Part shown: positions 10,600 to 62,651 of the stretch, one piece after another
Layout: each line of letters begins with the position of its first letter
Numbering within the stretch: the first letter of the stretch is position 1
NCBI GenBank assembly: GCA_964352335.1
Contig: CAYGRO010000002.1
Span: 13,138 to 77,137 of the forward strand
Source: an uncultured Gammaproteobacteria bacterium
Lineage (GTDB): Bacteria > Patescibacteriota > Patescibacteriia > VMEV01 > CAYQCH01
Reading direction: 5' to 3'
Length of the DNA: 64,000 nucleotides
Program-made: the position numbers and the translations under genes
The notes under the pieces: model-generated
What the model was told of the DNA's origin: nothing
What the model saw: only the letters and a program-made list of their open reading frames with translations
The model's database searches: none

Positions 10600-12425
10600 A
10601 CAACTTGTTCAGGATTGATATCAATAATGGCTTTACTATAAAGAGAATTTAGCATTTTGTCAAGAGTGGGGTCATTCTTCGTTGTTTGCTTTATTTGCCA
10701 TGAATACGCATAAATTTTGTTTTTTCTATAGCGTGAAAATGGCCCTAGAATCGTATATGGGCAGTTTTTATTAAGCTCACGAGTAAATGCTTCAACGGAG
10801 CCGATATATCTGAGGTCGGGCGATTTTAGCGTTATTGTGATAATCCGTGAAAAGGGAGGGTATTGTAAAAGTTTTCTCGCTTTCAATTCTTCTTGTCTAA
10901 ATGCGAGTAGATCTCCTCTTATGGCAAGATCAAAAGAGCCATCATCATTTTTTAGTGTTGTTTGAATGGTCAATGGTAGATTAAAGTAATCTTGAGAAAT
11001 AGCTCTATGCCATTGAATTGCTTGAAAGAACCATTCATTCGAACGATAATCTGGTAAGAATAATAAATTTTCTGGATGTAGATAAATAATTTTTCCAACA
11101 GAATTTGGTTCAACTTTTCTAAATAGTCGTTTTAATAAGTATGGGGTAGTTAAAATGAATGAAGGTGAGTCTATAGTCACTTCATCAATGGTTTGAGCGG
11201 TAATTACTTGTACTTGTTCATAGGAGTTTTTGATCCAGTCAGAAAGACCCTCTAACCCAAGTCCGAATGCTTTTATTCTTTGTCCTTTACAAGAAGTACA
11301 ATGATTAGGCATAGGTTCTTGATGGGCACATGAAGAGCAAAATAAAGCATTATTTTTTACATGTAATGATCCATGTTGATTTGGGCAAATCCATTGTTGT
11401 TTACAATCTAAACAACGAATAGTGCTTGCCTCATACTTGGCATTATTAATAAGTATAAGATGCTTTTGTTCTGCATAGGTTTTTTTCATTTCTTCGATGA
11501 GGTTTTCATGTAAGGGCAAAGATGCAGATTTATGAACAATAGAATGAATAGGTGCAGGGGAAGAAGAGGTAAGATTCCACTGTGTAGAATTAGCAATTCT
11601 GGGTGATAGAGAAAATTGAATAAGAGGAATCTTTAGTGATTCACAAAATAATTTAGCCATATCGCGGATATCGTAATTTGGAGTTGCTTCCCAAGATTTA
11701 TGGTCATTACTTTCCGGGTGGTCAATAATAATTTGTTCTATTTGTTGTAAAGGTAAAAACAAACCAGAGCGTGAAGCAATTACAAGCGAGGCTTTCTCCT
11801 TAATTTCTTGCCATAATTGCCATTGATTCGTTTTATTCATTTGGTTGTCCCATAAAAACGAGGTTGAATCATCGCATTCAAGTAATTGAAAGAGCTCTTC
11901 TGCATCCGTTATTTGTGAGCAAAGAATAAGTGTCTTTTTCGCTTTAACAAGTGATCTAAGTGAATGCACTTTTTCAGATAAATTGTGGTAAACAATGGTT
12001 TGAGTCTCATTGTTTTGATTTTCTACTTTTGTTTCAGGAATGAGTTGAGGCAAAAGAAGCTTGTTTCTTGTCTTTTGATTAAAGGCTCTTTTCGTTTTCG
12101 GTATTTCTGGTGTAAAGGACTTTGTTAATGTCGGTACTGAACAATGGTAAAGAGAACTAAATTTTTCTAATACCTCTAAATGACTAGTATTCCAACTAGG
12201 TTGGGTTTCTTTTATCGAGGTAATAAATGCAATTTTTTCAAGAGGGAAATTCAGTGGTGGTTTTTTTGAAGTCGATACAATAATTCCAAAAACAGCTTTT
12301 TTTCGAAAAGGAATTTCTACAAATTGTCCTATAAAAATAGACCCTTCTAGATCAGAAGGGATTTTATAAGTAAATGACGTCGCGCCATAAGGCATGCGAA
12401 CTAATGGGATGATATTTGCAAACAT
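10596..12425 (-). CDS. priA: primosomal protein N' (PriA) homolog with degenerate helicase ATPase motifs
   Basis: N-terminal 3'-DNA-binding-like region (FTYKIPSDLEGSIFIGQFVEIPF). Motif Ia/II-like segments (KKTLILCSQITDAEE, LVIASRSGLF, IIDHPESNDH). Cys-rich zinc region (CLDCKQQWICPNQHG...CSSCAH...CTSCKG). No GxGKT Walker A. The start is placed at the ATG at 12423-12425, one nt after the upstream stop. Confidence 0.7.
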   Translation of the reverse strand: MFANIIPLVRMPYGATSFTYKIPSDLEGSIFIGQFVEIPFRKKAVFGIIVSTSKKPPLNFPLEKIAFITSIKETQPSWNTSHLEVLEKFSSLYHCSVPTLTKSFTPEIPKTKRAFNQKTRNKLLLPQLIPETKVENQNNETQTIVYHNLSEKVHSLRSLVKAKKTLILCSQITDAEELFQLLECDDSTSFLWDNQMNKTNQWQLWQEIKEKASLVIASRSGLFLPLQQIEQIIIDHPESNDHKSWEATPNYDIRDMAKLFCESLKIPLIQFSLSPRIANSTQWNLTSSSPAPIHSIVHKSASLPLHENLIEEMKKTYAEQKHLILINNAKYEASTIRCLDCKQQWICPNQHGSLHVKNNALFCSSCAHQEPMPNHCTSCKGQRIKAFGLGLEGLSDWIKNSYEQVQVITAQTIDEVTIDSPSFILTTPYLLKRLFRKVEPNSVGKIIYLHPENLLFLPDYRSNEWFFQAIQWHRAISQDYFNLPLTIQTTLKNDDGSFDLAIRGDLLAFRQEELKARKLLQYPPFSRIITITLKSPDLRYIGSVEAFTRELNKNCPYTILGPFSRYRKNKIYAYSWQIKQTTKNDPTLDKMLNSLYSKAIIDINPEQVV

Positions 12426-23098: not shown

Positions 23099-23335
23099 TT
23101 GCGACGCATGGTCAATCTTACTCAATTCCTTAATAGGGAGCAAATAGAAGATATCAGTTTTAACCGATAGAACAGGTCAGTGTAATTACAAAAATGAATA
23201 AAAAATAAAACCCTCTTAAAGGGTTTTTGTTTTGTGCATCCTATTAAGGAATTGAGACAATAGAGGGGGAAAGAATGATTATCACTATATGAGTAAGTAG
23301 TAGCGTCGCACAATATACCTTATGCGACGCACTAG
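23099..23335. repeat. long imperfect inverted repeat enclosing a terminator hairpin
   Basis: Left arm TGCGACGC...CTTACTCA...ATTCCTTAATAGG at 23102-23140. Right arm CCTATTAAGGAAT...TGAGTAAG...GCGTCGCA at 23241-23311. An extra local hairpin GCGTCGCA-N12-TGCGACGC lies at 23304-23333. Confidence 0.5.
23201..23233. terminator. bidirectional rho-independent terminator between convergent genes
   Basis: AAACCCT-CTTAA-AGGGTTT stem-loop, flanked by an A-run on the left and a TTTTTGTTTTG run on the right. Confidence 0.6.
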
Positions 23336-24894: not shown

Positions 24895-25932
24895 CTAATG
24901 TCTTTTTATACCAAATCCTCGCTTAATTCTTCTGAATGACTCAATAATCCAATTCACCCAATATTTTGAAGTTAATGGGAAATCTTGTGCTGGTAATAAA
25001 TACTCAATTTCACCACCAAAACCTTTCTTAAACTTTGTAATTCCATAAAATGGACGCTTAGGATCGTCTGTATCATCAATTCCCCAGAAACTGTATTTCG
25101 TACAACCACGCGCCTTTGCTTCACGTATTGCTTCCCATTGTAGTAAGTATGCAACAGGAACTTTTGAGCGCAAAGAAGCTCCATGATGATAAGAAGCTAC
25201 ATTTCCGTAATACATAATAATGGCAGAAGCAATTATTTCATTTTCATATTTTCCTGTGTAGATAATAACTTCATCATCATCTCTAAATGTATTCACTTGT
25301 TCATGGTAAAGACGATTCGAATATGGAACAAAACGATGCCTCACATGCGTTTCATTCATTAATGTGATAAATGTATCAACATCAGAGTTATTTGTTGATT
25401 TTTCGATTACAACACCATCTTTTTGCGCACGTCTGATTAGATTTCTTGTTGTTTTTCGCATTCCCATGAGTAATTCCTCTTCGGTTGGTTGCAAATCTAA
25501 TTGCCAAACAATTTCAGATAAAACATGAATTGGAGCAATTTTGAATTTTAACTGTTTAAAGAGCGCTTCGTTTTCTTCTGTTCTTTTTAAATAAGGCGCC
25601 ATTCGAATGAAATCATATTTTTGCTCTCTCCCCCACTCTTTTAAATAATCCACGATAATTGTTAAATATTCAGCTGAATAATTTTTTAAAACTGGACCAT
25701 ATGGAATATAGAGATACTTCCCTCTTTTGGCATGTACTAGTAAAACTAAACAAATACCTACTAAAGTAGAATTTTCATAAATCCCTAATTTAAGTGACTC
25801 ATTACCTAGTAATTGTTCTTGCTTAGCAGAATTCCAAGATTGTAGAAAAGGTGGATGATTTTGAGCAAGCAAGAATGATTCCCACTCAGCTTTATTTTCA
25901 CTAATTTTTACTTGAATCAATTTATTATTCAT
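24895..25932 (-). CDS. FemAB-family peptidoglycan branch aminoacyltransferase
   Basis: YYGNVASYHHGASLRSKVPVAYLLQWEAIREAKARGCTKYSFWGI matches the FemABX signature region. GNAT-like duplicated fold and 345 aa length. Confidence 0.75.
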   Translation of the reverse strand: MNNKLIQVKISENKAEWESFLLAQNHPPFLQSWNSAKQEQLLGNESLKLGIYENSTLVGICLVLLVHAKRGKYLYIPYGPVLKNYSAEYLTIIVDYLKEWGREQKYDFIRMAPYLKRTEENEALFKQLKFKIAPIHVLSEIVWQLDLQPTEEELLMGMRKTTRNLIRRAQKDGVVIEKSTNNSDVDTFITLMNETHVRHRFVPYSNRLYHEQVNTFRDDDEVIIYTGKYENEIIASAIIMYYGNVASYHHGASLRSKVPVAYLLQWEAIREAKARGCTKYSFWGIDDTDDPKRPFYGITKFKKGFGGEIEYLLPAQDFPLTSKYWVNWIIESFRRIKRGFGIKRH

Positions 25933-30936: not shown

Positions 30937-30965
30937 TTGACAAAAGCTTGATTTTATGATAATTT
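30937..30965 (+). promoter_or_regulatory. sigma70-like promoter for the GC-rich gene
   Basis: TTGACA at 30937-30942, a 17-nt spacer, then TAATTT at 30960-30965. AAGGAG Shine-Dalgarno at 31000-31005, 6 nt before the GTG at 31012. Confidence 0.4.
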
Positions 30966-31011
30966 CGGCATTCTGGCACATACGTTTTGTGTCATAACAA
31001 AGGAGTGTTCC

Positions 31012-31632
31012 GTGAAGAAGTTCCCAATTGTGATTTTGTTGTTGTTCGCTTTCGTCATGCCCTGTATGGCGCAACAGGACAACGACAAGAAGAACACGAT
31101 GGCCACGCCGAAGGTCGACGAGCCCGCCAACCTGGCGACCCAAGTCGAGATCCTGAAGGCCAAGCTCGAGCGCGAGCAGCTTTTGACCCAGATCGCAGTC
31201 AAGCGGTCGAAGGAGCACGAGCAGCGTCTGCTGAACTTGCTCAAGCGCGTCAAGGCGATCGTCGCTGAGAACGAGAAGCTCAAGCTCCAGAACAAGGCGC
31301 TCGCCGAGCGGGTCGCAAGGAGCAAGCCTCCTATCGAGAATCCCACGGAGAAGAAGCAGGTGACCTCGAGCAAGCCCATCATCAAGGTCGTCGGTGAACC
31401 TCATCGGGTGACTGATCACGTGGCGCTGGTCGTCAACATCAAGGGCGCCAACTCCGGCGTCAAGGCTTGGTGGCATGGGACCGGCATGAAGAAGGCTATG
31501 CTTCTCAAGCTCAAGCAAGAGAAGAACGGTCACTTCTCGCTTCTCGTTGACAAGCCAACGAAGGAGCTCACGGTCTACATCAAGGCCGTCAATGGGAAGG
31601 AGAACACAACGCTCGCCATCCCGATCAAGTAG
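31012..31632 (+). CDS. secreted Lys/Glu-rich coiled-coil protein encoded by a GC-rich island
   Basis: GTG start after a strong SD. Signal peptide MKKFPIVILLLFAFVMPCMAQQ. Codons are GC-ending (AAG, GAG, CTC, GCC) and the line at 31081-31140 counts 38/60 GC, against 19/60 in the flank at 30841-30900. No homolog recognised. Confidence 0.6.
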   Translation: MKKFPIVILLLFAFVMPCMAQQDNDKKNTMATPKVDEPANLATQVEILKAKLEREQLLTQIAVKRSKEHEQRLLNLLKRVKAIVAENEKLKLQNKALAERVARSKPPIENPTEKKQVTSSKPIIKVVGEPHRVTDHVALVVNIKGANSGVKAWWHGTGMKKAMLLKLKQEKNGHFSLLVDKPTKELTVYIKAVNGKENTTLAIPIK

Positions 31633-31639
31633 CTGGCCC

Positions 31640-31700
31640 CCGCCGGCAAGAGACCCGTGCTGGCAGATCGCTCTATGAGTGGTTTGCTGGCACGGGTCTT
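31640..31700 (+). terminator. stem-loop at the 3' end of the GC-rich gene
   Basis: AGACCCGTGC...GCACGGGTCT 10-bp stem with a 29-nt loop, followed by TTTCAATTT. Terminator-like but the U-tract is weak. Confidence 0.35.
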
Positions 31701-41604: not shown

Positions 41605-42592
41605 AAGACTCGAGTTGAAGTCTTAGATTAGTACTTGTCGTGATTTGAAATAAAATATCTGAGAGCTGATCTTGTGCAGTAATAATTTTTTCATCAGTAA
41701 GGTTCTCAAACTGTAAACCAGAAAGCTCCGTGAAGAATAAGAGATCTGTTCTTTGTAATTTTAGCATAAGTAAGTCTCTTAGGAGTACTTTCCATAATTC
41801 AATTCTCTCATTCCATATTTTTTTTTGTTCACTAGGAGTCTTTTTTTTCTCTTTAAATAACGTTTCAATAATCTTTAGTCGTTTTCCAGGAGTCGTAGAG
41901 ATAAATTGAATAAAAAGCTCTCTTTCTTCGTTGAGTGATGATAATGCTGTTTCATCATGAACGAATTCTTGATAATTCCCTGGTAATTGTCTCGATTTTT
42001 GCCATAATTTTAGATCACCAGGATATTCATCTGGTGAAATTGCAGTAAATTCTATGACAGAACAACGCGAAATAATGGTTTTAGGTAATCGTGCAGGATA
42101 GCGAGAGAGTAGAAAAATGGCACAAGAAGCGGGTGGCTCTTCTAATGTTTTTAATAAAGCATTGCTTGCTCCATTCGACATTAAATCAGCATCATCAATG
42201 ACAAGATACTTTCGTTCCCCCATAACAGCAGATCTATAGGATTGTTGAATAGCAGTTCTTATCAATTCAACTGATAGATTTTGCTTGTCTTCTGGTTTAG
42301 CCACAAATAAGACATCTGGATGAGATCCTTGAAGAATCATTTTACAAGAATGACATTGTTCACAAGCGAGCTTATTAGTTGTTTGTTCTCCACCAAAAAG
42401 TGAATCTGAGGCGTCTTGAGTACAGAGAAACGACTGAATGAGCGCTGAAACTACTGTTCGTTTCCCTATTCTGGCTGGACCGCTAAATAAATAGCTCTGA
42501 CCTAGTGAGTTTTGGTCATGCAGATTTTGAAAATAGGAGATGATTTTGCTATGGCCAATGAGCTCAGGCATATGAAATCTATTTTGTAGCAA
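41588..42592 (-). CDS. holB: DNA polymerase III subunit delta'
   Basis: GQSYLFSGPARIGKRT P-loop-like region. Zinc-module cysteines CEQCHSC. SRC-like SRCSVIEF segment. Confidence 0.75.
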   Translation of the reverse strand: MLQNRFHMPELIGHSKIISYFQNLHDQNSLGQSYLFSGPARIGKRTVVSALIQSFLCTQDASDSLFGGEQTTNKLACEQCHSCKMILQGSHPDVLFVAKPEDKQNLSVELIRTAIQQSYRSAVMGERKYLVIDDADLMSNGASNALLKTLEEPPASCAIFLLSRYPARLPKTIISRCSVIEFTAISPDEYPGDLKLWQKSRQLPGNYQEFVHDETALSSLNEERELFIQFISTTPGKRLKIIETLFKEKKKTPSEQKKIWNERIELWKVLLRDLLMLKLQRTDLLFFTELSGLQFENLTDEKIITAQDQLSDILFQITTSTNLRLQLESFALHV

Positions 42593-49839: not shown

Positions 49840-50553
49840 TTAGCTTAAAATCTCAATATCCAAGATTTCTACATCTACAACTGGGTGATCGGCTGCTCCT
49901 GTTTCTACAGATTCAATTTTATCTACAATATCCATTCCATCTACCACTTCTCCAAAAACAGCATGCTTACCGTCTAAATGAGGTGTCGCACCTACTGTGA
50001 TAATAAAGAATTGGCTTCCATTGGTATTTGGACCCGCATTGGCCATAGAAAGCATTCCACGGACATTTTTGTGTAAATTAAATTCATCAGCAAATTTATA
50101 CCCAGGACCACCAGTTCCATGTACAGCTCGAGTATCTCGTTGTTCTCGAGTTAAAGGATCTCCACCTTGAATCATAAAATCAGAAATAACTCGGTGGAAA
50201 ACGGTTCCATCGTAAAAATCTTGTTTTGCAAGCGTTAAGAAATTGTTAACAGTATTAGGAGTTGCTTCTTCAAATAATTGAATAGTAATATCTCCCATTG
50301 TTGTTTTCATGATAACTTTTGGACCAACTTTGCTATCTGAATTTGTTTGTGTAGCTTCTGCTGGTAAATCTGTTGGAGGTGTCACTGTAATTTTTTGTCC
50401 GACTTTGTCTGATTGTGGTGTGTCATTCATATAATAATCTAGGTTAGTTGTATCGTTTGAATTATGAAAAGTAAATTCTTCTGGCTGATTACAGCTGCTC
50501 CCTAATAAAACGAGAGAACAACAAATACCTGCTAAGGCAAGTTTATTATTCAT
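49840..50553 (-). CDS. cyclophilin-type peptidyl-prolyl cis-trans isomerase, lipoprotein
   Basis: Lipobox [27 protein letters not shown] cyclophilin signature. Confidence 0.85.
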
Positions 50554-50564
50554 AGTAGTTTTCT

Positions 50565-50660
50565 TGTCATTTCGACCGAAGCCCCTTTAGGGCGTAGTGG
50601 AGAAATCTACTAACTCTTGTTGGAAGATTTCTCGGCTTCGCTCGAAATGACAGGTTAATT
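50565..50660. repeat. GC-rich nested palindromic element (TGTCATTTCGA.. / ..TCGAAATGACA termini)
   Basis: 18-bp outer stem GTCATTTCGACCGAAGCC / GGCTTCGCTCGAAATGAC with one mismatch. Inner 9-bp stem GAGAAATCT / AGATTTCTC. Lies between the uvrC stop and the ppi start. Confidence 0.55.
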
Positions 50661-50663
50661 TGG

Positions 50664-52286
50664 TTAATGTTTATCTTTTATCATGCCTTTCTTTCTCAAG
50701 AGGCGATGATAGGTAATTGCAAAACGATGAGCCTCATTACGGATTTGCATCAATAATTTGAGCCCAGGTTCTTTATGAGACAATTTTAAGGTCTCAAGTT
50801 CTTCTACACGATAAATCTCTTCTTCTTTCTTGGCAAGTCCTATAACTGGAACCTTTAATTTTAAGGCTTTTAAAACCTCCCATGCCGCATTTAATTGTCC
50901 CCTACCTCCATCTATTACAATGAGATCGGGCAAAGGTTTCTTTTCTTCGATTAACCGTTTATAGCGTCTTCCAACAACTTCCGCCATCGAAGCAAAATCG
51001 TCTTGTTGGAGAACCGTTTTAATCTTGAACTTTCGATAATTCGATTTATCTGGTACCCCACCTCGAAATTGCACCATGGAAGCAACATTATATTGACCTT
51101 GAATAGTGGAAATATCAAAACATTCGATGACATTTGGTACCCCTGGTAAATTTAAATGCGCTTGTAAACTGAGTAATGATTTATCTTCTTGCTCGGTTGC
51201 AAAAAGAATATTTCTATAAACAAGGTCGAGCAATTTCTTTTTATCACCAATACGCGGAACTTTTAGCTGAACAACTTTTCCTTTTAGTTTAGTTAAATAG
51301 GCTTCTAATAATTTTTTATCCGGCAAATCTGTTGGGATAAGCAAAGAATCTGGAACCGTATTTGTTTGATAATACTGTTGAATAAAATCAGAAATAATCA
51401 CAAGATCATGATCTATTGTGCCATCTGGTTTAATAATATCTCTTTCGAAAGTGAATTCTTGTTTACCAGAAACACGTCCTTTATCTACTTTAAACATTTG
51501 TAAATACAGCGTCTCACCCACACCAATCCAATGCATAATATCTTCGTCATATGATCTATACATGGTCATTTTTTGTCTTGCTTGGAATTTTCGTAAAGAA
51601 GCTATTTGATCTCGCCTTACTTTTGCTTGTTCATATAATTGCTTTTCAGAAAATGATTGCATCTCTTGCGACAATTGCTTGATAACTAATTTATTTCTTC
51701 CCTGAAGAACTTGTTTTGCTGCTTTCATATTCGCGCCATATTCCGTTTTTGTCGTTTTCTTAATACAAGGAGCTTCGCAATTGCCAATATAAAATTGTAA
51801 ACAAGCTTCTTTTGGTAATTTTGCTCCACAGGTTCGAATTTTGAAGATTGAACGCAATAATCTAGCAGAATTTTCTCTCGCCGTTCCATCTGTATACGGG
51901 CCAAAATACAAAGCTCCATCTTTTTGACGTTTACGGACTGTTAGTAAGCGTGGAAAGTCTTCATTTGTGATTTTCAAGTAAGCATAACGAACACCGTCTT
52001 TAAGTGCGATATTATACCGTGGTTGATGTTGCCGAATAAGGCGCGCCTCTAAGATCAAGGCTTCGATTTCGGTATCTGTTAAAAAGATTTCGATTTGGTC
52101 AATTTCACGGACAAGCCACATTGTTTTCCCTTCCTGTTTTTTCGAAAAATAGGAAGAAACACGCTTTTTAAGCGCTTTGGCTTTACCAATATAAATGATC
52201 ACACCCTGTTTATTTTTATAGATATAAACACCAGGCTTAAGTGGAAGATCATTGATTGTTTTTTTGAGTTTTTCGTTGGCTGGCAT
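50664..52286 (-). CDS. uvrC: excinuclease ABC subunit C
   Basis: N-terminal GIY-YIG (PGVYIYKNKQGVIIYIGKAKALKKR). UvrBC-interaction and RNase H-like/HhH C-terminal regions. Confidence 0.9.
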   Translation of the reverse strand: MPANEKLKKTINDLPLKPGVYIYKNKQGVIIYIGKAKALKKRVSSYFSKKQEGKTMWLVREIDQIEIFLTDTEIEALILEARLIRQHQPRYNIALKDGVRYAYLKITNEDFPRLLTVRKRQKDGALYFGPYTDGTARENSARLLRSIFKIRTCGAKLPKEACLQFYIGNCEAPCIKKTTKTEYGANMKAAKQVLQGRNKLVIKQLSQEMQSFSEKQLYEQAKVRRDQIASLRKFQARQKMTMYRSYDEDIMHWIGVGETLYLQMFKVDKGRVSGKQEFTFERDIIKPDGTIDHDLVIISDFIQQYYQTNTVPDSLLIPTDLPDKKLLEAYLTKLKGKVVQLKVPRIGDKKKLLDLVYRNILFATEQEDKSLLSLQAHLNLPGVPNVIECFDISTIQGQYNVASMVQFRGGVPDKSNYRKFKIKTVLQQDDFASMAEVVGRRYKRLIEEKKPLPDLIVIDGGRGQLNAAWEVLKALKLKVPVIGLAKKEEEIYRVEELETLKLSHKEPGLKLLMQIRNEAHRFAITYHRLLRKKGMIKDKH

Positions 52287-52296
52287 GTTGATTCTA

Positions 52297-55125
52297 TTAT
52301 TTCAACATTGGTTGTAAGAATTGACCGGTATAACTTTTTTTATTGGCAGCAATATCTTCTGGAGTACCTGTTGCAATAATTTTTCCTCCTCCATCACCAC
52401 CTTCTGGACCAAGGTCGATAATATGATCCGCTGTTTTAATAACATCCAGATTATGTTCAATCACAACAATAGTATTACCACGATCAACAAGTCTATTTAA
52501 GACTTCTAATAATTTCTCGATATCAGAAAAATGTAAACCAGTTGTTGGTTCATCTAAAATATACAATGTTTTCCCTGTATCTCTTTTCGATAATTCTGAT
52601 GTTAATTTAATCCGTTGTGCCTCACCACCAGAAAGTGTGGTAGAACTTTGACCTAACTTGATATATCCAAGCCCAACATCATTTAAGGTTGCCATTTTCT
52701 TTTGAATTTTTGGGATGCGCTCAAAAAAGACTAAAGCTTCTTCAACCGACATATCTAAAACATCAGCAATTGTTTTTCCTCGGTATTTTACTTCTAATGT
52801 TTCTCGATTATACCGTTTCCCTTTACATGTTTCGCATTCTACAAAAACATCAGGTAAAAAATGCATTTCGATTCGCAACACTCCATCTCCGTCACAAGTA
52901 TCACATCTCCCACCAGCTACATTGAAGCTAAACCTCCCTGCTTTATAACCACGTTCTTTGGCTTCTTTGCTTTGTGCAAATAAATCGCGTACATCGCCGA
53001 ACACTTTAATATAAGTTGCAGGATTCGATCTTGGAGTTCTTCCAATTGGACTTTGGTCAATATTAATCACTTTATCGAATTGTTCAAACCCTTTTAAGGC
53101 TTTAAATTTACCAGTGACTTTATGCGAACGATGTAATTTATTGGCTAAACCTTTATAGAGAATTTCATTTACAAGTGTACTTTTCCCACTTCCTGACACT
53201 CCTGTTACACAAGTTAAAATACCTACAGGAAAAGAGGCCGAAACTTTTTTGAGATTATTTTGCTCCGCTTCTTGCACTTCTAAAACATCTTTATACTCTC
53301 GTCGTTTAGCTGGTATAGCAATTTTCTTTTTTCCAGAGAGATATTGTCCTGTTTTTGATTTAGGATCACGTTTTACTTGCGCAGGAGTTCCTTGAGAAAT
53401 AATTCTTCCACCATGAATACCAGCTCCAGGGCCAATATCGATTAAATGATCCGCCGCATTCATGGTATCTTCGTCATGTTCAACCACAATTAATGTATTT
53501 CCGATATCTCGAAGACGATGAAGGGTTGAAATCAAGCGTTGATTATCTCTTTGATGTAGACCAATCGAAGGTTCATCGAGAATATACATAACCCCACGTA
53601 ATTCTGATCCAATTTGAGTAGCCAAACGAATTCGTTGCGCTTCTCCACCAGAAAGAGTTCCGGCTGAACGTGAAAGAGTTAAGTAACTTAAACCAACATC
53701 GTTCAAAAACTTTAATCGATCATGCACTTCTTTAACCACCATTTTGGCAATTTGTTTTTCTGTCGCATTTAATTTAAGTTTTTTGATTTTGTCTAAAGCT
53801 TTTTCTACAGATAGATCCGTAAACTCAATAATATTCATTTTATCGATAGTCACAGCCAGAACAACCGCTTTTAATCGATGCCCATCACATTCTGGACAGG
53901 GCTTTTCTGTCATGAATTTCATGATACGTTCGCGTCGATCTTCTGAATCTGTTTCTTGTAAATATCTTTGTAATTGCGGAATCACACCTTCCCATTCACC
54001 AAAATGACGGAACATGGACCCTTTTTTCGATTCAAAAACAACTTCAATCTCTTCCCCATTTCCATGCATGACCATTTTCACAATCTCTTTAGGCAAGTCT
54101 TCAATCGCACTTCGAAGATTGAATTTATAATAATCAGCCAAGGCTTCCATATACGTCATTCGCCAGGTATTTGGCCCTTTCCATGGTGCAATTGCTCCAA
54201 TATCAGCAAATGAAAGTGATTTATCTGGAATAATTAATTCTTCATCAAATTCTTGAGCCACCCCAAGCCCATGACAAGTATCACAAGCACCAAAAGGCGA
54301 ATTAAAAGAAAATAAACGTGGTTCTAATTGTTCCACATTTACATGATCATCGGGACAAGAGAGATGTTGAGAAAAGACTTCTTGCTGTTCATCGTCACCA
54401 AATAAAACCATCACAAGACCTTCTGCTGTATCTAAGGCTGTTTCAACTGAGTCATTAATTCTTGTTCTAGTATCTTTATCTGTATCAACTTTAATACGGT
54501 CAACAATAACTTCGATAAAATGTTTTTTCTTTTTATCTAATTTAATTTCTTCCGAGATATCATAAATTTTTCCATTTACACGAATACGAGCAAAACCATC
54601 TTTTTCTAATCGTTTAAACAATTCAACATAGGTTCCCTTTTTTCCTCGAATAATAGGAGCTAGAATTTGGATTTTGGTTCCGTTTTTTTGTTTCAAAATA
54701 GTATCCGTAATATCTTGTGCAGATTGAGAGACAATTTCTTTGGAACAAACCGGACAATGTGGTTTACCAATACGCGCATAAAGCAAACGTAAATAGTCGT
54801 AAATTTCGGTAATCGTACCAACCGTTGACCGTGGATTCTTTGAAACCGATTTTTGTTCAATAGAAATAGCCGGGCTTAACCCCCGAATAGCATCTACATC
54901 TGGCTTATTCATTAAACCTAAAAATTGCCGAGCATAGGCAGAAAGACTTTCTACATAGCGTCTTTGACCTTCGGCATAAATGGTATCAAAAGCCAAAGAA
55001 GACTTACCTGATCCAGATAAGCCCGTAATAACGTTTAATTTCCCCAAAGGGATTTTCACGTTAATATTCTTCAAATTATGTTCCCTTGCCCCTTGAATTG
55101 TGAGGTATTCTTGTTGTTTAGGCAT
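52297..55125 (-). CDS. uvrA: excinuclease ABC subunit A
   Basis: Two ABC ATPase modules (GLSGSGKSSLAFDT and GVSGSGKSTLV). Zinc-finger cysteine clusters. 942 aa. Confidence 0.95.
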   Translation of the reverse strand: MPKQQEYLTIQGAREHNLKNINVKIPLGKLNVITGLSGSGKSSLAFDTIYAEGQRRYVESLSAYARQFLGLMNKPDVDAIRGLSPAISIEQKSVSKNPRSTVGTITEIYDYLRLLYARIGKPHCPVCSKEIVSQSAQDITDTILKQKNGTKIQILAPIIRGKKGTYVELFKRLEKDGFARIRVNGKIYDISEEIKLDKKKKHFIEVIVDRIKVDTDKDTRTRINDSVETALDTAEGLVMVLFGDDEQQEVFSQHLSCPDDHVNVEQLEPRLFSFNSPFGACDTCHGLGVAQEFDEELIIPDKSLSFADIGAIAPWKGPNTWRMTYMEALADYYKFNLRSAIEDLPKEIVKMVMHGNGEEIEVVFESKKGSMFRHFGEWEGVIPQLQRYLQETDSEDRRERIMKFMTEKPCPECDGHRLKAVVLAVTIDKMNIIEFTDLSVEKALDKIKKLKLNATEKQIAKMVVKEVHDRLKFLNDVGLSYLTLSRSAGTLSGGEAQRIRLATQIGSELRGVMYILDEPSIGLHQRDNQRLISTLHRLRDIGNTLIVVEHDEDTMNAADHLIDIGPGAGIHGGRIISQGTPAQVKRDPKSKTGQYLSGKKKIAIPAKRREYKDVLEVQEAEQNNLKKVSASFPVGILTCVTGVSGSGKSTLVNEILYKGLANKLHRSHKVTGKFKALKGFEQFDKVINIDQSPIGRTPRSNPATYIKVFGDVRDLFAQSKEAKERGYKAGRFSFNVAGGRCDTCDGDGVLRIEMHFLPDVFVECETCKGKRYNRETLEVKYRGKTIADVLDMSVEEALVFFERIPKIQKKMATLNDVGLGYIKLGQSSTTLSGGEAQRIKLTSELSKRDTGKTLYILDEPTTGLHFSDIEKLLEVLNRLVDRGNTIVVIEHNLDVIKTADHIIDLGPEGGDGGGKIIATGTPEDIAANKKSYTGQFLQPMLK

Positions 55126-55132
55126 TTTTATT

Positions 55133-55165
55133 CCCTGTCATCCTTCCCTTTTGGGAGGAATCTCA
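55133..55165. repeat. partial copy of the TGTCAT-type GC-rich hairpin element in the uvrA 5' leader
   Basis: CCTGTCATCCTTCCCTTTTGGGAGGAATCTC shares TGTCAT...GGAATCTC with the element at 60478-60548. Confidence 0.3.
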
Positions 55166-55412: not shown

Positions 55413-55880
55413 ATGAAATATTCCAGATTTATAATAAGCAATTTTAAAGGTATTGATGAAATCACAATCGATTTTTCGAACAATCGAGTAATAACACTAG
55501 TTGGCCTCAATGAGAGTGGGAAAACAACCATAATGGAGGCTATCCACTTGTTTTATAAAATGCTTAAGGGCGACGAACCAAGTGAAAGTGAACTAAAAAC
55601 ATTGCGTCCGAAGGGGGCAGGCTTCACTGGTAACATCAAAATAACAGGCGAATTGGTTTTAGAAGAAATTGATAAGAAAAAAATCAATAAATATTGGAAA
55701 CATGATCTTAACTTATCTGGTTGGTGGATCTTAGTCCCATTTGTAAACTCTCTTTTATGGCTCGGGGGGTTCTTTTTAAGAGGTATCTCAGGCGAAAATA
55801 AGTATGGCCAACCACCAACAAATGATACATCACTCACTGAAGCATTATTTGCGCCACAACCATTACCTCAAACGAAATAA
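55413..55880 (+). pseudogene. N-terminal fragment of an OLD/ABC-type (AAA_15/AAA_21-like) ATPase; the C-terminal half is not ATPase-like and the gene appears truncated
   Basis: The first about 95 aa (RFIISNFKGIDEITIDFSNNRVITLVGLNESGKTTIMEAI) match the P-loop N-terminus of OLD/RecF-like ATPases. No Walker B or signature motif follows. The ORF stops at the uvrB stop codon. Confidence 0.5.
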
Positions 55881-55885
55881 CTAGC

Positions 55886-57841
55886 TTATAGTATCTCATC
55901 ATCATTCATCCCATGCCTCCCCTTCACCTCACTAATCTCATCCCGCAATTCAATCGCTCGTTCAAAATCCATATTTTCCGCAGAAATTTTCATCGCTGCT
56001 TCTAATTCAGCTAAAAGATCTGGAACATTATCGATATCTTTATAAAGTTTTTTCACATCTTCATCCAAAGACAATCGTTCTCGAATTTTTTTACTAATAC
56101 CAACAGGTTCAATATTATGCTTGGTATTATAATCTTCTTGAATTTTTCGACGACGATTCGTTTCTGAAATCGCTTTTTTCATTGAATCGGTCGTTTTTGA
56201 CGCATACATAATCACACGACCATTCACATTACGCGCGGCACGACCAATTGTTTGGATTAAACTTCTTTCATTACGTAAAAACCCTTCTTTATCAGCATCC
56301 AAAATTGCGACGAGTTCCACCTCTGGGATGTCTAATCCCTCTCTAAGTAAATTGATACCAACTAGACAATCAAAACGTTTCATACGCAAATCTCGTAAGA
56401 TTTCTGTACGTTCAATTGTATCGATTTCACTATGAAGATACCGAACTCGAATACCATTTTTTGCTAAATGATCAGAGAGATCTTCGGCCATTCGTTTGGT
56501 TAAAGTTGTTACCAAAACACGATTATCTCTTGATAAAGTATCTTTAATTTCTTTTACCAAGTCCTCGATTTGCCCATCTTGTTCTCGAACCTCAATTGGA
56601 GGGTCTAATAAACCTGTTGGACGAATAATTTGTTCAACAACTAATGGGGTTCTTTGTAATTCAAAAATCGTTGGAGTCGCACTCACAAAAACAGTATTCT
56701 TCATATATTTTTCAAACTCTTCAAACTTTAACGGACGATTATCTAATGCACTTGGTAATCGAAAACCATATTCGACAAGGTTTTCCTTTCGTGAACGATC
56801 ACCTTTATACATTCCACCAACTTGAGGGATTGTCACATGTGACTCATCGATAAATAAAAGAAAATCATCGGGGAAGAAATCTAATAATGTCTTAGGAGCT
56901 TCACCTGGTTTACGTCTATCAAAATGACGAGAATAATTTTCGATTCCCTTACAAGACCCAAATTCTTTAATCAATTCTAAATCGTATAAAGTTCTTTGCT
57001 TTAAACGATGTGCTTCTAATTGAGGAAGTGTTTTAAGCCTTTCATCTAATTCCGCTTTAATATCTTTAATCGCCGGTTTCATATCATCGGGATTTACCCA
57101 ATATGGATTACGCGGAAAAACCGTTAATTCGTCGAGAGCAATAATTTCTTTTTGAGTTGTTAAATGTCGTTCAGAAATTTTTTCAATTTCATCTCCAAAT
57201 AATTCAATTCTATAAATCGAACCACCAAACCCTTGAATCAAATCTATCGTATCCCCTTTTCCTCTAAAGGTCCCAGTTTTTAATTCTATATCATTTCGTT
57301 CAAAACCAATACGAACCAATTGTGCAAATAATGCTTTGCGAGAAATCTTTTGTCCTTTTTTAAGTTCAAAACTCGCTTCTTTAAATGTTTCTGGTCTACC
57401 AAAACCGTAAATACAAGAAACAGAAGAAACAATAATAACATCTTTTCTACTAATCAAATCAGCTGCCGAAGCTAAACGAAATTCTTCAATTTTTTCATTC
57501 ACCAAAGTTGATTTTTCAATAAATGTATCACTCGCCGGCATATAACTTTCCGGTTGGTAATAGTCGTAATAAGAAATAAAATAATTCACTCTATTATTTG
57601 GAAAAAACTCTTTCATTTCTGAATACAATTGAGCCGCCAATGTTTTATTATGAGACAAAATTAACGCAGGTCTCCCTGTTTGAGCAATCACATTTGCCAT
57701 GGTAAACGTCTTCCCACTCCCCGTAACACCGAGTAAAGTTTGATATTGCTTTTTCTTTTTCAACCCAGCAACAAGCTTCTCAATTGCTTGAGGTTGGTCT
57801 CCTTTCGGTTCGTATTCAGATTGCAGATCAAATAGAGGCAT
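55886..57841 (-). CDS. uvrB: excinuclease ABC subunit B
   Basis: GVTGSGKT Walker A, helicase motifs and a UvrB beta-hairpin region. 651 aa. Confidence 0.95.
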   Translation of the reverse strand: MPLFDLQSEYEPKGDQPQAIEKLVAGLKKKKQYQTLLGVTGSGKTFTMANVIAQTGRPALILSHNKTLAAQLYSEMKEFFPNNRVNYFISYYDYYQPESYMPASDTFIEKSTLVNEKIEEFRLASAADLISRKDVIIVSSVSCIYGFGRPETFKEASFELKKGQKISRKALFAQLVRIGFERNDIELKTGTFRGKGDTIDLIQGFGGSIYRIELFGDEIEKISERHLTTQKEIIALDELTVFPRNPYWVNPDDMKPAIKDIKAELDERLKTLPQLEAHRLKQRTLYDLELIKEFGSCKGIENYSRHFDRRKPGEAPKTLLDFFPDDFLLFIDESHVTIPQVGGMYKGDRSRKENLVEYGFRLPSALDNRPLKFEEFEKYMKNTVFVSATPTIFELQRTPLVVEQIIRPTGLLDPPIEVREQDGQIEDLVKEIKDTLSRDNRVLVTTLTKRMAEDLSDHLAKNGIRVRYLHSEIDTIERTEILRDLRMKRFDCLVGINLLREGLDIPEVELVAILDADKEGFLRNERSLIQTIGRAARNVNGRVIMYASKTTDSMKKAISETNRRRKIQEDYNTKHNIEPVGISKKIRERLSLDEDVKKLYKDIDNVPDLLAELEAAMKISAENMDFERAIELRDEISEVKGRHGMNDDEIL

Positions 57842-57905: not shown

Positions 57906-58045
57906 GGATAGATCTGATTCAAAACCAGAGCGTATGTTTGTTAAACTTAGTTTATACCTAGTACTTTACCACCCCAGTTTGGCGAAGCCAAACTACCCCT
58001 CCTAATCTAGCCCTCGGCCATGAGCTCGGGCCGAATGGGAGGGGT

Positions 58046-58423
58046 ATGTATGTTTATATGTATTTACATAATGATTCGTCTTCAAAACTGTTAAGAAAAA
58101 CAACAAGAAACAATGCTACAAATAGTGAACGACTATTATGGTCAAAACTTCGGCGAAAACAGTTAGGTGGTTTTAAATTTAGAAGAAATCATCAAATCCT
58201 GAGATATTATGTTGATTTCTATTGTCCATCAGCTCGCTTAGCAATTGAAGTAGATGGAAAGATTCATGAGAATCCACAAAACAAATTATATGATCAAATA
58301 AGAGATAAAGAAATTAGGACGTTAAACATCAATATTCTTCGTTTTAGCAACGATGATATTACACAAAACACACAACAAGTACTTGAAATAATCCTAAAGA
58401 ATCTCACTACTTCCCCCTACTAA
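58046..58423 (+). CDS. DUF559 (Vsr-like endonuclease fold) domain protein
   Basis: ERLLWSKLRRKQLGGFKFRRNHQILRYYVDFYCPSARLAIEVDGKIHE...YDQIRDKEIRTLNINILRFSNDDI matches the DUF559 signature. The true start may be an internal Met. Confidence 0.7.
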   Translation: MYVYMYLHNDSSSKLLRKTTRNNATNSERLLWSKLRRKQLGGFKFRRNHQILRYYVDFYCPSARLAIEVDGKIHENPQNKLYDQIRDKEIRTLNINILRFSNDDITQNTQQVLEIILKNLTTSPY

Positions 58424-58448
58424 GTTAGGAGGGGGCTAGGGGGTGGTA

Positions 58449-59054
58449 CTACTCCCACTCCTCATAAAACCGCTCCAAAAACCCTTCCATATAATCATGC
58501 CTTTCCTTTGCCATTTGTTTACCAGTCTCCGTATTCATCAAATCTTTCAACTTAAGTAATTTGTCATAAAAATGTTGAATAGAATGTTTCCCTTCTTTAT
58601 CATTTGGATCATAAATCGGTCTTCCCATTTTCGCCCCTGTTGCAAAACATCGCGCAATACCAATCGCACCTATGGCTTCCAGCCTATCTGCATCTTGAAC
58701 AATTTTACCTTCTTTAGATTTCATTGGTCCTGCATTTTTTGAATAAGAAATGGTTGAAACAATTTCAACAACTTCATGAATCAATTCAGGTTCTAGATTC
58801 AATGACCCTAACCATTCTCTTGTCATTTTTGGCCCAATAGAGTAATCCCCTCCATGGTTTTTATGATCAGCAATATCATGAAGCAAGGCAGCCAGTTCTA
58901 CCACAAAAAGATTTACATCAATTTCGTTTTCTGCAATTTGCATTGCATTTTTTCTAACAAGATGAATATGATACCAATCATGCCCCGAGCTTTCGCCAGC
59001 AAGTGTGTCTTGAACAAATTGTTCTGTTTTACTTATAACTTCGGTTGGAGACAT
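58449..59054 (-). CDS. HD-domain phosphohydrolase
   Basis: HDWYH...LHDIADHK is the H...HD...D metal-binding pattern. 201 aa. Coupled to the upstream lpd by a stop-1nt-ATG junction. Confidence 0.75.
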   Translation of the reverse strand: MSPTEVISKTEQFVQDTLAGESSGHDWYHIHLVRKNAMQIAENEIDVNLFVVELAALLHDIADHKNHGGDYSIGPKMTREWLGSLNLEPELIHEVVEIVSTISYSKNAGPMKSKEGKIVQDADRLEAIGAIGIARCFATGAKMGRPIYDPNDKEGKHSIQHFYDKLLKLKDLMNTETGKQMAKERHDYMEGFLERFYEEWE

Positions 59055-59055
59055 A

Positions 59056-60417
59056 CTAAAATTGTGCCAATGCTCGATGTATTACTTCTGGTAAAGCAGG
59101 ATGAACATGAATTGTATTAACAATTTCACTGATTTTCCCTTTTCTACGCATCACTGGAAGAACTTCATGAATTAATGTAGAAGCTTCTGGACCGAGTATA
59201 TGGCAACCTAAAATTGTTTCTCCTTTTTCATCAGCCAGCACTTTTACAAAAGATGTTTCATCTCTAAATGCCATTCCCATTCCAGTATTTTTATAATCAT
59301 AACGAGAGACTTTGTATTTAACGCCTGCTTCTTTTAATTCTTGTTCTGTTTTACCAACCCCAGCCATTTGTGGCGAAGTAAAGACAGCATATGGCATGGC
59401 GGTATAATCAATTTTAGATTTTTTTGGGAGGAATAGATTTTTCACAATCCCTTCTGCTTCTAAATTTGCCGAATGTTTAAAAAAGTATTTACCAGCAATA
59501 TCCCCCAATGCCCACACACCTGGCACAGAAGTCTCTAAATAATCATTATTTGTGATATAGCCACGATCTGTTAAGTCATACCCAACTTCTTTTAACTTTA
59601 ACGTATCTGTATTCGGCTTTCTCCCAACAACAACCAATAATTGATCTGACGTAATAGTAGATTTCTTTTTCGTTGCAAGATTTTCAACTTGTACTTTGAT
59701 CTTCCCCTTCACCTTGCTTACACTCATCGCATTTGAATTGAGCAATACTTTATGTTTTTTAGAAAACTCTTCTGTAAAGGTTTTTGAGATATCTTGATCA
59801 GTATTCTTTAACATTTGATCCCCCCTTTCAATAATTGTGACCTTTGATCCTAATGCCCCAAAAAAATGAGACAATTCTGCAGAAATATATCCACCACCAA
59901 TAACGGTCAACGTTTTTGGAAGCTTTTTCAGTCGTAAAGCTTCTTTACTTGTGAGGTAATCTACTTTATCTAAACCAGGAATAGGTGGTACAAATGGCCG
60001 ACCTCCTGCGGCAATAATAATTTTATCGGCAGTAATTGTTTCTTTTCCAACTTGAATAACTTTTTTATCGATAAACTTTGCCTTCTTTTGAAAAACCGTA
60101 ATATTTGGATTCTGCTTATTCCCTGCCAATACATTTTTTGCATCTTGATCAACTGTTTTTGAAACTCGCTCAATAAGTTCAGAGAATTTCACCCCATTGT
60201 ATTTAGCTTTGATTGAATACTTACTGGCATTCTTGATTGATTCAACAATATCAGCCGCATGAATCAGCATTTTTGAAGGAATACACCCACGATTCAAACA
60301 AGTCCCCCCAAATGGCCCCGAATCCACCACAGCAACCTTCCACCCCTGAGCAGCCGCCGTAGAAGACACCGTCAATCCAGACCCCGCCCCAATAACAATC
60401 AAATCAAATTTTTTCAT
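59056..60417 (-). CDS. FAD-dependent pyridine nucleotide-disulfide oxidoreductase (dihydrolipoyl dehydrogenase-like)
   Basis: IVIGAGSGL FAD fold. GGTCLNRGCIPSK redox-active disulfide. C-terminal dimerisation domain ending with HPALPE. The start is taken at MKKFD (ATG at 60415-60417); the longer track ORF reads through upstream palindromic DNA. Confidence 0.85.
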   Translation of the reverse strand: MKKFDLIVIGAGSGLTVSSTAAAQGWKVAVVDSGPFGGTCLNRGCIPSKMLIHAADIVESIKNASKYSIKAKYNGVKFSELIERVSKTVDQDAKNVLAGNKQNPNITVFQKKAKFIDKKVIQVGKETITADKIIIAAGGRPFVPPIPGLDKVDYLTSKEALRLKKLPKTLTVIGGGYISAELSHFFGALGSKVTIIERGDQMLKNTDQDISKTFTEEFSKKHKVLLNSNAMSVSKVKGKIKVQVENLATKKKSTITSDQLLVVVGRKPNTDTLKLKEVGYDLTDRGYITNNDYLETSVPGVWALGDIAGKYFFKHSANLEAEGIVKNLFLPKKSKIDYTAMPYAVFTSPQMAGVGKTEQELKEAGVKYKVSRYDYKNTGMGMAFRDETSFVKVLADEKGETILGCHILGPEASTLIHEVLPVMRRKGKISEIVNTIHVHPALPEVIHRALAQF

Positions 60418-60477
60418 AAATAACCCAAAATTAAGGTTCAAACCCTCACTAGCATTGTACCACGAATGGCTCCCCAC

Positions 60478-60548
60478 CCCCTTGTCATTCCTGCGCAGGC
60501 AGGAATCTCCCGATATTGATGAGATACCCGCCTGCGCGGGCATGACAA
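60478..60548. repeat. GC-rich palindromic element with TTGTCATT...ATGACAA termini (second copy of the family)
   Basis: CTTGTCATTCCTGCGCAGGCAGGAATCTCCCGATATTGATGAGATACCCGCCTGCGCGGGCATGACAAGG. Two internal short hairpins, and the outer arms are inverted with 2-3 mismatches. Confidence 0.55.
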
Positions 60549-60645
60549 GGATTTATATCGAGCAACTTTATGAAACAATAATCAACCCAACAAAATCAAA
60601 AACCCTCCTCAAAACAAGAAGGGTTAATTGATCAAGAAAATTCAA

Positions 60646-61934: not shown

Positions 61935-62651
61935 ATGGAAACTCTACGCCTTCAAAAATTTATCGCAGACCAAGGGGTTGCATCTCGTCGAAAAGCCGAG
62001 GATCTTATTCGTGAAGGAAGAGTTCGTGTAAACGGAGAAGTGGCTCATATTGGCCAAAAAATCAACCCAGAAGTCGACCAAGTTGTCATTAAAGGACAAA
62101 GCTTGCAAGTAAGATCATCTGAGCCAATTGTGTATATTTTCAATAAACCAAAAGGGATTACTAGTACAACCAGAAAATTCAAAGGAGAAAAGAATATTCT
62201 CAGCTTTTTTCCTAATACTCACCGTTTATTCCCTGCTGGACGACTAGATAAAGATTCTCGAGGCATGATGATTATTACCAATGATGGTGAATTAGCCAAT
62301 GAAATCATGCATCCATCGAAACAGTCAGAAAAAGAGTATATTGTTACGACCTATGAACCATTAGATGACCTTGCCATGAAACGACTTAGACAAGGAATTA
62401 CCTACGAAAAAATCAACTATAAGCTTATTTCGGCAAAAGAGTTAAAGAAAAATGAATACCGTATCGTCCTTGGAGAAGGAAAAAAACGTCATATTCGTAT
62501 GATGTTTAGAGCCTTGAATGTAAAAATCCGTGATTTATACAGAAAACGTATAAATGACCTAGAAATAGGAAAGCTCCCCGTTGGAAAGTATAAAGAGCTC
62601 ACTCAAGAAGAAATAGCTCTCGTTTTACAAAATAGTCGAAAAAAGCGCTAA
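61935..62651 (+). CDS. rluB: pseudouridine synthase, RsuA/RluB family
   Basis: S4 domain (RLQKFIADQGVASRRKAEDLIREGRVRVNG). Catalytic GRLDKDSRGMMIITNDGELA motif. Confidence 0.85.
   Translation: METLRLQKFIADQGVASRRKAEDLIREGRVRVNGEVAHIGQKINPEVDQVVIKGQSLQVRSSEPIVYIFNKPKGITSTTRKFKGEKNILSFFPNTHRLFPAGRLDKDSRGMMIITNDGELANEIMHPSKQSEKEYIVTTYEPLDDLAMKRLRQGITYEKINYKLISAKELKKNEYRIVLGEGKKRHIRMMFRALNVKIRDLYRKRINDLEIGKLPVGKYKELTQEEIALVLQNSRKKR

Follow-up and report, generated by a model that had tools for sequence, protein, structure and literature searches.

The 64-kb stretch of contig CAYGRO010000002.1 analysed here (the window; GC content 35.5%) contained the genes ppi, uvrC, uvrA, uvrB and lpd, all on the minus strand, and three palindromic elements, termed E1, E2 and E3 (Table 1). 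E1 occupied the spacer between uvrC and ppi, E2 was located upstream of lpd, and E3 was located in the leader of uvrA. All three were GC-rich (0.47, 0.58 and 0.50, respectively, vs 0.355 for the window), as an earlier interpretation made without database searches (the sequence-only reading) had stated. That reading had also placed them directly upstream of start codons. This was accurate for E1, which started 11 nt past the uvrC stop codon and ended 11 nt ahead of the ppi ATG, and for E3 (10 nt), but not for E2, which was located 65 nt ahead of the true lpd ATG. The lpd start was assigned to position 60417 instead of 60543 because the profile match covered the longest open reading frame (ORF) only from residue 43. 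The in-frame ATG at 60543 adds 42 codons (60418–60543) that read through E2, and this repeat-encoded extension could mislead gene callers into annotating a false N-terminal extension.

E1 was a nested palindrome, as had been described. Its outer arms (50565–50583 and 50634–50652) were 19 nt long and 95% complementary, and the 9-bp inner stem (GAGAAATCT/AGATTTCTC) was present. Folded as RNA, the leader strand reached −42.5 kcal/mol (z = −8.3), and 0 of 200 shuffled sequences folded as well. The second element was also a strong palindrome. The arms of E2 (60480–60509 and 60521–60550) were 30 nt long, 87% complementary and separated by 11 nt, each arm was itself a hairpin, and the RNA fold had a free energy of −49 kcal/mol (z = −6.7). 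Its two arms differed by a compensated pair (T-A in the left unit, U3, and C-G in the right unit, U4), so that each retained its own hairpin. As DNA, U3 folded at −7.7 kcal/mol (z = −4.4) and U4 at −6.8 kcal/mol. The left unit of E1 (U2) folded at −6.1 kcal/mol (z = −2.0), and DNA folding indicated that the stability of E1 derived from the whole dimer and not from its short right unit (U1). E3 (TGTCATCCTTCCCTTTTGGGAGGAATCTC), which the sequence-only reading had listed as a third, partial copy, was present as a statistically weak single hairpin with a 4-nt loop.

The three elements shared a common unit frame, consisting of an unpaired TGTC tag, a stem opening with AT, a loop and a complementary arm ending in AT, followed by C. 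E1 and E2 each contained two inverted units with the tags outside and an 11-nt spacer. The TGTC tag was found at the start of all five units, as were GTC directly 5' and C directly 3' of the hairpin. The tails all started with C (CTC in three units, CTT and CTA in one each). In the E1 units, the stems consisted of 5 bp, a tandem G.A/A.G and a further 1–2 bp including a covarying pair, the loops spanned 6–24 nt, and the loop can carry an extra hairpin. The termini that had been reported as common to the elements were recovered, as TTGTCAT-N30-60-ATGACA, in E2 only (two matches representing one locus on both strands; 0.17 expected). E1 was not matched because its arms are farther apart than this pattern allows.

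Hairpins of this type have been described as CGTC-tagged repetitive extragenic palindromic (REP) elements, a family that was equated with Neisseria dRS3 and Rickettsia RPE-4/RPE-6 and has no associated transposase (Di Nocera, De Gregorio, Rocco 2013, PMC3733652). Its members carry the tag CGTC (variants TGTC, often, and CCTC), stems of 8–9 bp starting with AT (A-T and T-A pairs), loops of 4–5 nt and a 3-nt tail with the consensus CCA (PMC3733652). They form mostly head-to-head dimers with the tags outside and are dispersed in tens to thousands of copies per genome, with five phyla listed in 2013 (PMC3733652). The units of E2 fitted the stem and loop range of the family (8 bp, 4 nt) and E3 did so roughly, whereas the E1 units were outside it. 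In Neisseria, the related NTS (CGTCATTCCCGCGMAVGCGGGAATCYRG) is bound and cut solely as single-stranded DNA (ssDNA) by the 94-aa GIY-YIG protein SsnA (Nat Commun 2025, PMC11893778). Binding depends critically on the C just past the palindrome and cutting on the three bases that precede it, and Ssn-related motifs (SRM) flank ssn genes across phyla (PMC11893778). We consider it probable that E1, E2 and E3 are copies of this CGTC/TGTC-tagged REP-like hairpin repeat (dRS3/NTS, RPE-4/6, Ssn-related motif) and have no gene-specific regulatory function. The dispersed family with TGTCAT...ATGACA ends, similar to REPs or miniature inverted-repeat transposable elements (MITEs), that the sequence-only reading had proposed would then consist of head-to-head dimers and a singleton of a known repeat.

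Copies of the E2 unit were abundant elsewhere. Metagenome contigs were scanned with TGTCATTCCTGCGNAGGCAGGAATCT, a 26-nt unit of E2 (the first 26 nt of U3) with one loop base left free, and matches were found in at least 120 contigs. Among the matches listed, approximately 40% were tags-outward dimers, many of them heterodimers with a partner of different stem sequence; singletons also occurred. For unit counts, the 80 loci listed (492 kb, GC 0.27–0.58) were taken in, and the exact GCAG-loop core of U3 was observed 13 times among them. These loci contained 145 strict units (46 sequence types), vs 6 in 1.18 Mb of unrelated control loci, which were obtained by a UvrC-alignment search of genome contigs whose listed matches were mostly archaeal and included one relative, L007. 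The tag of the strict metagenome units was TGTC in 133 cases and CGTC in 9. CT-type tails dominated the AT-rich loci, and CCAG was also found. A covariance model built from 41 distinct units (R1) recognized both units of E2, U3 with 37.7 bits (E = 1.2e-7) and U4 with 33.6 bits (E = 1.5e-6).

With E2 as the query, BLAST against plasmid records gave multi-copy matches in Photobacterium and in two N. gonorrhoeae chromosomes that are filed among these records. Further matches were on a Francisella plasmid and on a plasmid of a Rickettsia endosymbiont. The copies on the Rickettsia-endosymbiont plasmid were head-to-head dimers (TGTCATTCCTGCGTAGGCAGGAATCTA...TAGATTCCTGCCTACGCAGGAATGACA), and the Francisella copy was a head-to-head dimer with a 12-nt spacer. 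On the former plasmid (CP084575.1; L087, 8460–9540), the TGTC dimer was situated inside an element of ~330 bp that was repeated three times and had the ends GTCGCTCCGTCAAAA and TTTTGACGGAGCGAC. This dimer is a repeat nested in a repeat.

The close homologues of the window's UvrC (63–83% identity) were metagenome proteins, and the nearest named homologues belonged to the 'Parcubacteria group' (64%, partial protein) and Candidatus Uhrbacteria. Together with the neighbouring genes, which include those for MreB, RRF and DNA polymerase III delta', these homologues suggest a host of the Parcubacteria type. Parcubacteria form part of the candidate phyla radiation (CPR), which comprises ultra-small bacteria. 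In the three closest relatives by UvrC identity (L002, 83%; L004, 73%; a JGI contig, 71%), E1 was absent from the uvrC–ppi spacer, which was 10, 3 and 13 nt long, respectively. Given these short spacers, E1 represents an insertion into an otherwise tightly packed operon. E2 was absent in L002, the sole relative in which the lpd region was read. There, the terminator of the gene upstream of lpd ran straight into a conserved TG-extended −10-like box, and compared with L002 the window had E2 and approximately 45 nt inserted between the terminator and this box. The empty orthologous sites indicated that E1 and E2 are insertions and not conserved regulators.

E1 also differed in a contig of a near-identical strain. 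Exact look-ups with proteins of the window gave no record for UvrC, Lpd or UvrA and, for Ppi, only a 1-kb Logan contig. A 1-kb Logan contig from another sample (L001, ERR3534981) encoded an identical Ppi with identical flanks and contained E1 with one unit remodelled. Compared with positions 50554–50663 of the window, positions 129–247 of this contig had the tag TATC and a loop of 25 nt in place of 6 nt, and the 9-nt AAATTAACC beside E1 was missing. The variant could stem from genuine turnover or from misassembly of the palindrome. The more distant relative L005 had a uvrC–ppi spacer of 108 nt with a different GC-rich hairpin (11590–11650) in a similar frame, GTGTATTCCTT...AAGGAGAATC, which suggests repeated occupation of this spacer and not conservation.

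A candidate partner nuclease accompanied the units in other genomes. A gene encoding a GIY-YIG protein of 94–102 aa was found in 6 of the 80 metagenome loci listed; in five it was located within 500 nt of a unit and in three within 100 nt. One of these metagenome proteins matched a single locus in each N. gonorrhoeae chromosome (50% identity, E = 3e-23), a 94-aa ORF embedded among seven strict NTS copies, which is presumed to be the SsnA orthologue. One of the metagenome proteins was identical to P0157 (94 aa), encoded in the complete 1.29-Mb genome of a Candidatus Moraniibacteriota bacterium (CP175956.1; L224) and 51% identical to the presumed gonococcal SsnA. The P0157 gene was bracketed by three units (37–42 bits), of which one lay 16 nt upstream of the start codon and another 2 nt past the stop codon. 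These units included the ATGCC...GGTAT variant that is found in U4 of E2 and was also seen in metagenome loci. The bracketing units and the similarity to SsnA indicated that a full nuclease-plus-repeat system exists in CPR bacteria. The Moraniibacteriota genome is distant from that of the window organism (UvrA 48% identical).

The two units of E1 differed from the canonical ones and were followed with a separate pattern, NGTCATTNYGASCG-N(3-36)-GARVAATC. Such GA-type units (consensus TGTC-ATTYCGAS...SGAGRAAT-CT) were counted 10 times in the 492 kb of U3-type loci, once in a viral contig and twice in the window (both E1), with none in the 1.18 Mb of control loci. Short GA-type units in L097 and L182 read TGTCATTTCGAGCGAAGCGAGAAATCT, one base from the right unit of E1, and long ones in L181, L170 and L130 had the layout of its left unit. 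The outer stem covaried between copies (ATTTC/GAAAT, ATTCC/GGAAT and ATTCT/AGAAT), while the tandem G.A/A.G was kept and the following pair alternated between C-G and G-C. In L181, three GA-type units were located 60–330 nt upstream of an Ssn-like gene, and two of them formed a tags-outward dimer. Matches of an 18-mer of U1 in viral contigs were set aside, as 10 of the 11 represented one coding-sequence coincidence in related phages.

Because GA-type units recur in the same contigs as canonical ones, covary and adjoin an Ssn-like gene in L181, the units of E1 are filed as variant members, that is, as a putative subfamily of the TGTC/CGTC repeat superfamily. The different GC-rich interiors of E1 and E2 noted in the sequence-only reading would correspond to these two subfamilies. 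A further proposal, that GA-type units form an undescribed subfamily of Ssn-associated hairpins with a swappable or flippable loop, perhaps currently active in CPR bacteria, is doubtful. Current activity was proposed on the ground that two near-identical strains differed solely in the loop and tag of one E1 unit. If it held and CPR Ssn proteins recognized GA-type units, these proteins would be ssDNA nucleases of new specificity, and the repeats might mark or restrict DNA taken up by DNA-scavenging, ultra-small CPR bacteria.

Several results weighed against assigning the three elements to this family. The published SRM pattern, HGTCWYN(0-2)YYVSBRHN(0-5)WNVSBRGN(0-2)RNCYNB, had 0 matches in the window and matched 0 of the 5 units; by inspection, U3 failed at one covarying pair (T-A vs the expected C-G) and U4 at the last base. 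In the covariance-model check that the sequence-only reading had called for, E2 was recovered with high scores, but the E1 units (12.4 bits, E = 0.64) and E3 (11.6 bits, E ~1.1) scored at chance level. U1 alone had no predicted fold as ssDNA (−1.7 kcal/mol, z = 0.3). The 64 kb contained only five units at three loci, with no subtype present at a second locus, so that a multi-copy status in this genome is putative. Searches by regular expression, tblastn and hidden Markov model detected no ssn-like gene in the window or in the loci of four relatives, with weak matches only to the GIY-YIG domain of UvrC.

Other candidates in the window were examined and rejected. Model R1 returned no further convincing copy in the 64 kb; a match at 42320–42357 (21 bits) was inside the conserved C-x2-C...HPD motif of a DNA polymerase III delta'-like gene. 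A GGTC hairpin at 62558 on the minus strand was treated as a chance occurrence, as it was inside a pseudouridine-synthase gene. A first tag-plus-hairpin scan was too permissive (9 in the window vs 9 expected) and was dropped. A weak tblastn match to ssn at 25540–25752 was inside a 345-aa ORF that was read by eye as encoding a FemAB-like peptidyltransferase.

E3 is, in our assessment, a decayed singleton of the repeat family. With a smaller probability, E3 has no relation to the other two elements and is a leader hairpin that arose by chance or is specific to the lineage. Besides the chance-level score, its DNA fold was weak (z = −1.3), its stem of nine positions carried one mismatch and one wobble, and comparable model scores were found inside genes. 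Against chance, E3 displayed the full TGTC-AT...AT-CTC frame with a 4-nt loop. Moreover, the orthologous uvrA-leader site of L002 contained a hairpin with a conserved GAGATTC...GAAT frame and a completely different stem, a change of stem as seen in the heterodimers of the family.

An origin as another non-autonomous mobile element, either a GTAG-type REPIN mobilized by a RAYT tyrosine transposase or a MITE with terminal inverted repeats (TIRs) mobilized by a DDE transposase, was considered improbable. The inverted doublet with a short spacer resembles REPINs, the elements are inserted relative to the relatives, and the inverted termini are TIR-like. However, the tag is TGTC and not GTAG, the supposed TIRs are hairpin units that also occur singly, and the associated gene encodes a GIY-YIG nuclease, while no transposase is associated with CGTC-type repeats (PMC3733652). 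No target-site duplication or direct repeat surrounded E1 or E2, the 9-nt duplication AAATTAACC being confined to one side of E1. No Y1 transposase was noted among the ten genes of the scanned 49.8–62.7 kb stretch, in which no dedicated Y1 search was made.

The sequence-only reading had alternatively suggested a conserved regulatory RNA or protein operator shared by these genes. A cis-regulatory RNA common to uvrC–ppi, uvrA and lpd, e.g. an attenuator, riboswitch-like leader or stability element, would account for the strong predicted RNA hairpins, for the position of E1 and E3 10–11 nt ahead of start codons and for the L002 hairpin at the E3 position, with its conserved flanks and different stem. 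This explanation is now very improbable and was largely refuted by the empty orthologous sites of E1 and E2. The uvrA-leader hairpin was likewise missing in L004 and the JGI contig, where uvrA starts 8 and 5 nt after the preceding gene, respectively. Identical units were found at unrelated loci in more than 100 unrelated contigs. Rfam had 0 matches at gathering thresholds in the whole window, in agreement with the statement that no known riboswitch or non-coding RNA could be named. Based on the sequence alignment, E2 is probably upstream of the lpd promoter and hence outside the lpd transcript, because it precedes the TGGTACAAT box that aligns with TGCTATACT of L002. That the elements had been placed in the 5' leaders of genes on the minus strand reflects a coincidence of position. 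As palindromes, E1 and E2 lack an orientation. An intrinsic terminator scan called none at E1, E2 or E3, and no T-run followed them. A protein operator, e.g. an SOS/LexA-type box of TGTCA...TGACA half-sites controlling DNA-repair genes, has a negligible probability: the elements are near uvrA and uvrC and have palindromic ends, but the half-sites are 55–80 nt apart, elements are also present at ppi and lpd and absent in relatives, the sequence is dispersed at unrelated genes in many genomes, and LexA-type GAAC-N4-GTTC boxes were not enriched (22 vs 21.4 expected).

Following the literature on Ssn, a unit of the hairpin repeat would fold as a hairpin once the DNA is single-stranded, and a cd10448-type GIY-YIG nuclease of ~95 aa, Ssn, would bind this hairpin, with the C directly after the stem as the most important base. 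Ssn would then cut near the tag, where the three bases before the stem are most important. Insertion of the copies in the window may be due to this incompletely understood system or to recombination among repeat copies, and they presumably have no gene-specific regulatory role. As by-products, the uvrC–ppi co-transcript would contain a hairpin of −42 kcal/mol at a distance of 11 nt from each gene, and the uvrA leader a small hairpin formed by E3. By analogy with REPs in other bacteria, the hairpins of E1 and E3 could change mRNA stability, decay or translation.

The elements should consequently not be annotated as riboswitches or operators of DNA-repair genes. The advance is modest, as this kind of repeat was already described. 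What is new is that the repeat occurs in a Parcubacteria-like genome, that another CPR genome has the matching nuclease gene and that there is a variant unit subfamily; our literature search retrieved no paper linking these repeats to Patescibacteria. The Ssn system, studied mostly in Proteobacteria, would thereby extend to CPR, bacteria thought to depend on DNA uptake, and the TGTC...CT and GA-type units suggest that there are Ssn enzymes of different ssDNA specificity. How the repeats spread could be studied with the occupied and empty sites and with the remodelled E1 of the other strain.

Table 1. Elements, their units and associated genes in the window.
Feature	Position	Strand	Remarks
E1, head-to-head (tags outward) dimer of two TGTC-tagged hairpin units	50565..50652	no orientation	in the 110-nt uvrC–ppi spacer
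E1 left unit U2, long-loop GA-type, TGTC-ATTTCGACCGAAGCCCCTTTAGGGCGTAGTGGAGAAAT-CTAC	50565..50610	+	architecture as in metagenome loci L181, L170, L130 and L140
E1 spacer, 11 nt, TAACTCTTGTT	50611..50621		read from the sequence
E1 right unit U1, short GA-type, TGTC-ATTTCGAGCGAAGCCGAGAAAT-CTTCC	50622..50652	-	one base off units in metagenome loci L097 and L182
E2, head-to-head heterodimer of two canonical units	60483..60547	no orientation	between the terminator of the upstream gene (60601-60625) and the lpd ATG (60417)
E2 left unit U3, TGTC-ATTCCTGC-GCAG-GCAGGAAT-CTC	60483..60509	+	8-bp stem, 4-nt loop
E2 spacer, 11 nt, CCGATATTGAT	60510..60520		
E2 right unit U4, TGTC-ATGCCCGC-GCAG-GCGGGTAT-CTC	60521..60547	-	one G.T in stem
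E3, single degenerate unit, TGTC-ATCCTTCCC-TTTT-GGGAGGAAT-CTC	55136..55164	+	10 nt upstream of the uvrA ATG
Terminator-like hairpin of the gene upstream of lpd	60601..60625	-	E2 is downstream of the hairpin
Putative extended -10-like box, TGGTACAAT	60451..60459	-	between E2 and the lpd ATG; aligns with TGCTATACT of L002; not called by the consensus promoter scan
ppi	49840-50553	-	
uvrC	50664-52286	-	
uvrA	52297-55125	-	
uvrB	55886-57841	-	
lpd	ATG placed at 60417	-	profile match begins at residue 43 of the longest ORF

The window had further features unconnected to the repeats. Outside its own clade, the best matches of UvrC (50664–52286) were mostly archaeal proteins (Methanoregula, Methanosarcina and Woesearchaeota; 43–49% identity), which hints at an old transfer between CPR bacteria and archaea. 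An ORF of 155 aa on the plus strand (55413–55880), between uvrA and uvrB and opposite to them, matched only the N-terminal ATPase part of proteins of the RecF, PtuA and retron-effector type and possibly represents a defence gene that has been truncated. Inverted C-run/G-run motifs (57996–58048 and 58413–58463) flanked a DUF559 (Vsr-like endonuclease) gene at 58046–58423, and L002 had other genes in place of this region (57996–58463), which may be a small mobile cassette. A 610-bp island with 59% GC (31091–31700), located beside genes resembling seryl- and lysyl-tRNA synthetase genes, looked like foreign DNA. It was inside a plus-strand reading frame (~30952–31632) for a coiled-coil-like product with a hydrophobic N-terminus, followed by a hairpin at 31651–31699. 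An inverted repeat at 23121–23256, with 22-nt arms (CTCAATTCCTTAATAGGGAGCA/TGCATCCTATTAAGGAATTGAG; 91% complementary, 92 nt between them), was unrelated in sequence to the TGTC units.

Among known systems, the elements most closely resemble the CGTC REP superfamily (PMC3733652). They share with it the unpaired 4-nt tag, of which TGTC is a listed variant, the A-T/T-A start of the stem and the short unpaired tail, and the 8-bp stems and 4-nt loops of E2 are those of CGTC-1. Head-to-head dimers predominate in both, heterodimers occur, the location is intergenic and no transposase is near. In contrast to this superfamily, the tails in the window are CTC, CTT or CTA and not CCA, the E1 units have a stem interrupted by a tandem G.A and loops of 6–24 nt, and the Parcubacteria-like (CPR) host is outside the five phyla listed in 2013. 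Similar to NTS/SRM and SsnA (PMC11893778), the units have GTC before and C right after the hairpin, U4 is a few positions from the NTS core, and unit types of the window are found around an SsnA homologue with 51% identity in a complete CPR genome. Unlike in that system, the strict SRM pattern is unmatched, the window has no ssn gene, and the stems are more AT-rich (CCTGC, not CCCGC). REPIN/RAYT, i.e. GTAG-tagged REP doublets (Bertels and Rainey 2011), likewise combine two inverted hairpin units and a short spacer into one long hairpin, are non-autonomous and intergenic, and have singlets that appear to be decayed dimers. The elements described here differ from them in the tag, TGTC instead of GTAG, and in the associated enzyme, a GIY-YIG nuclease instead of an HUH/Y1 transposase.

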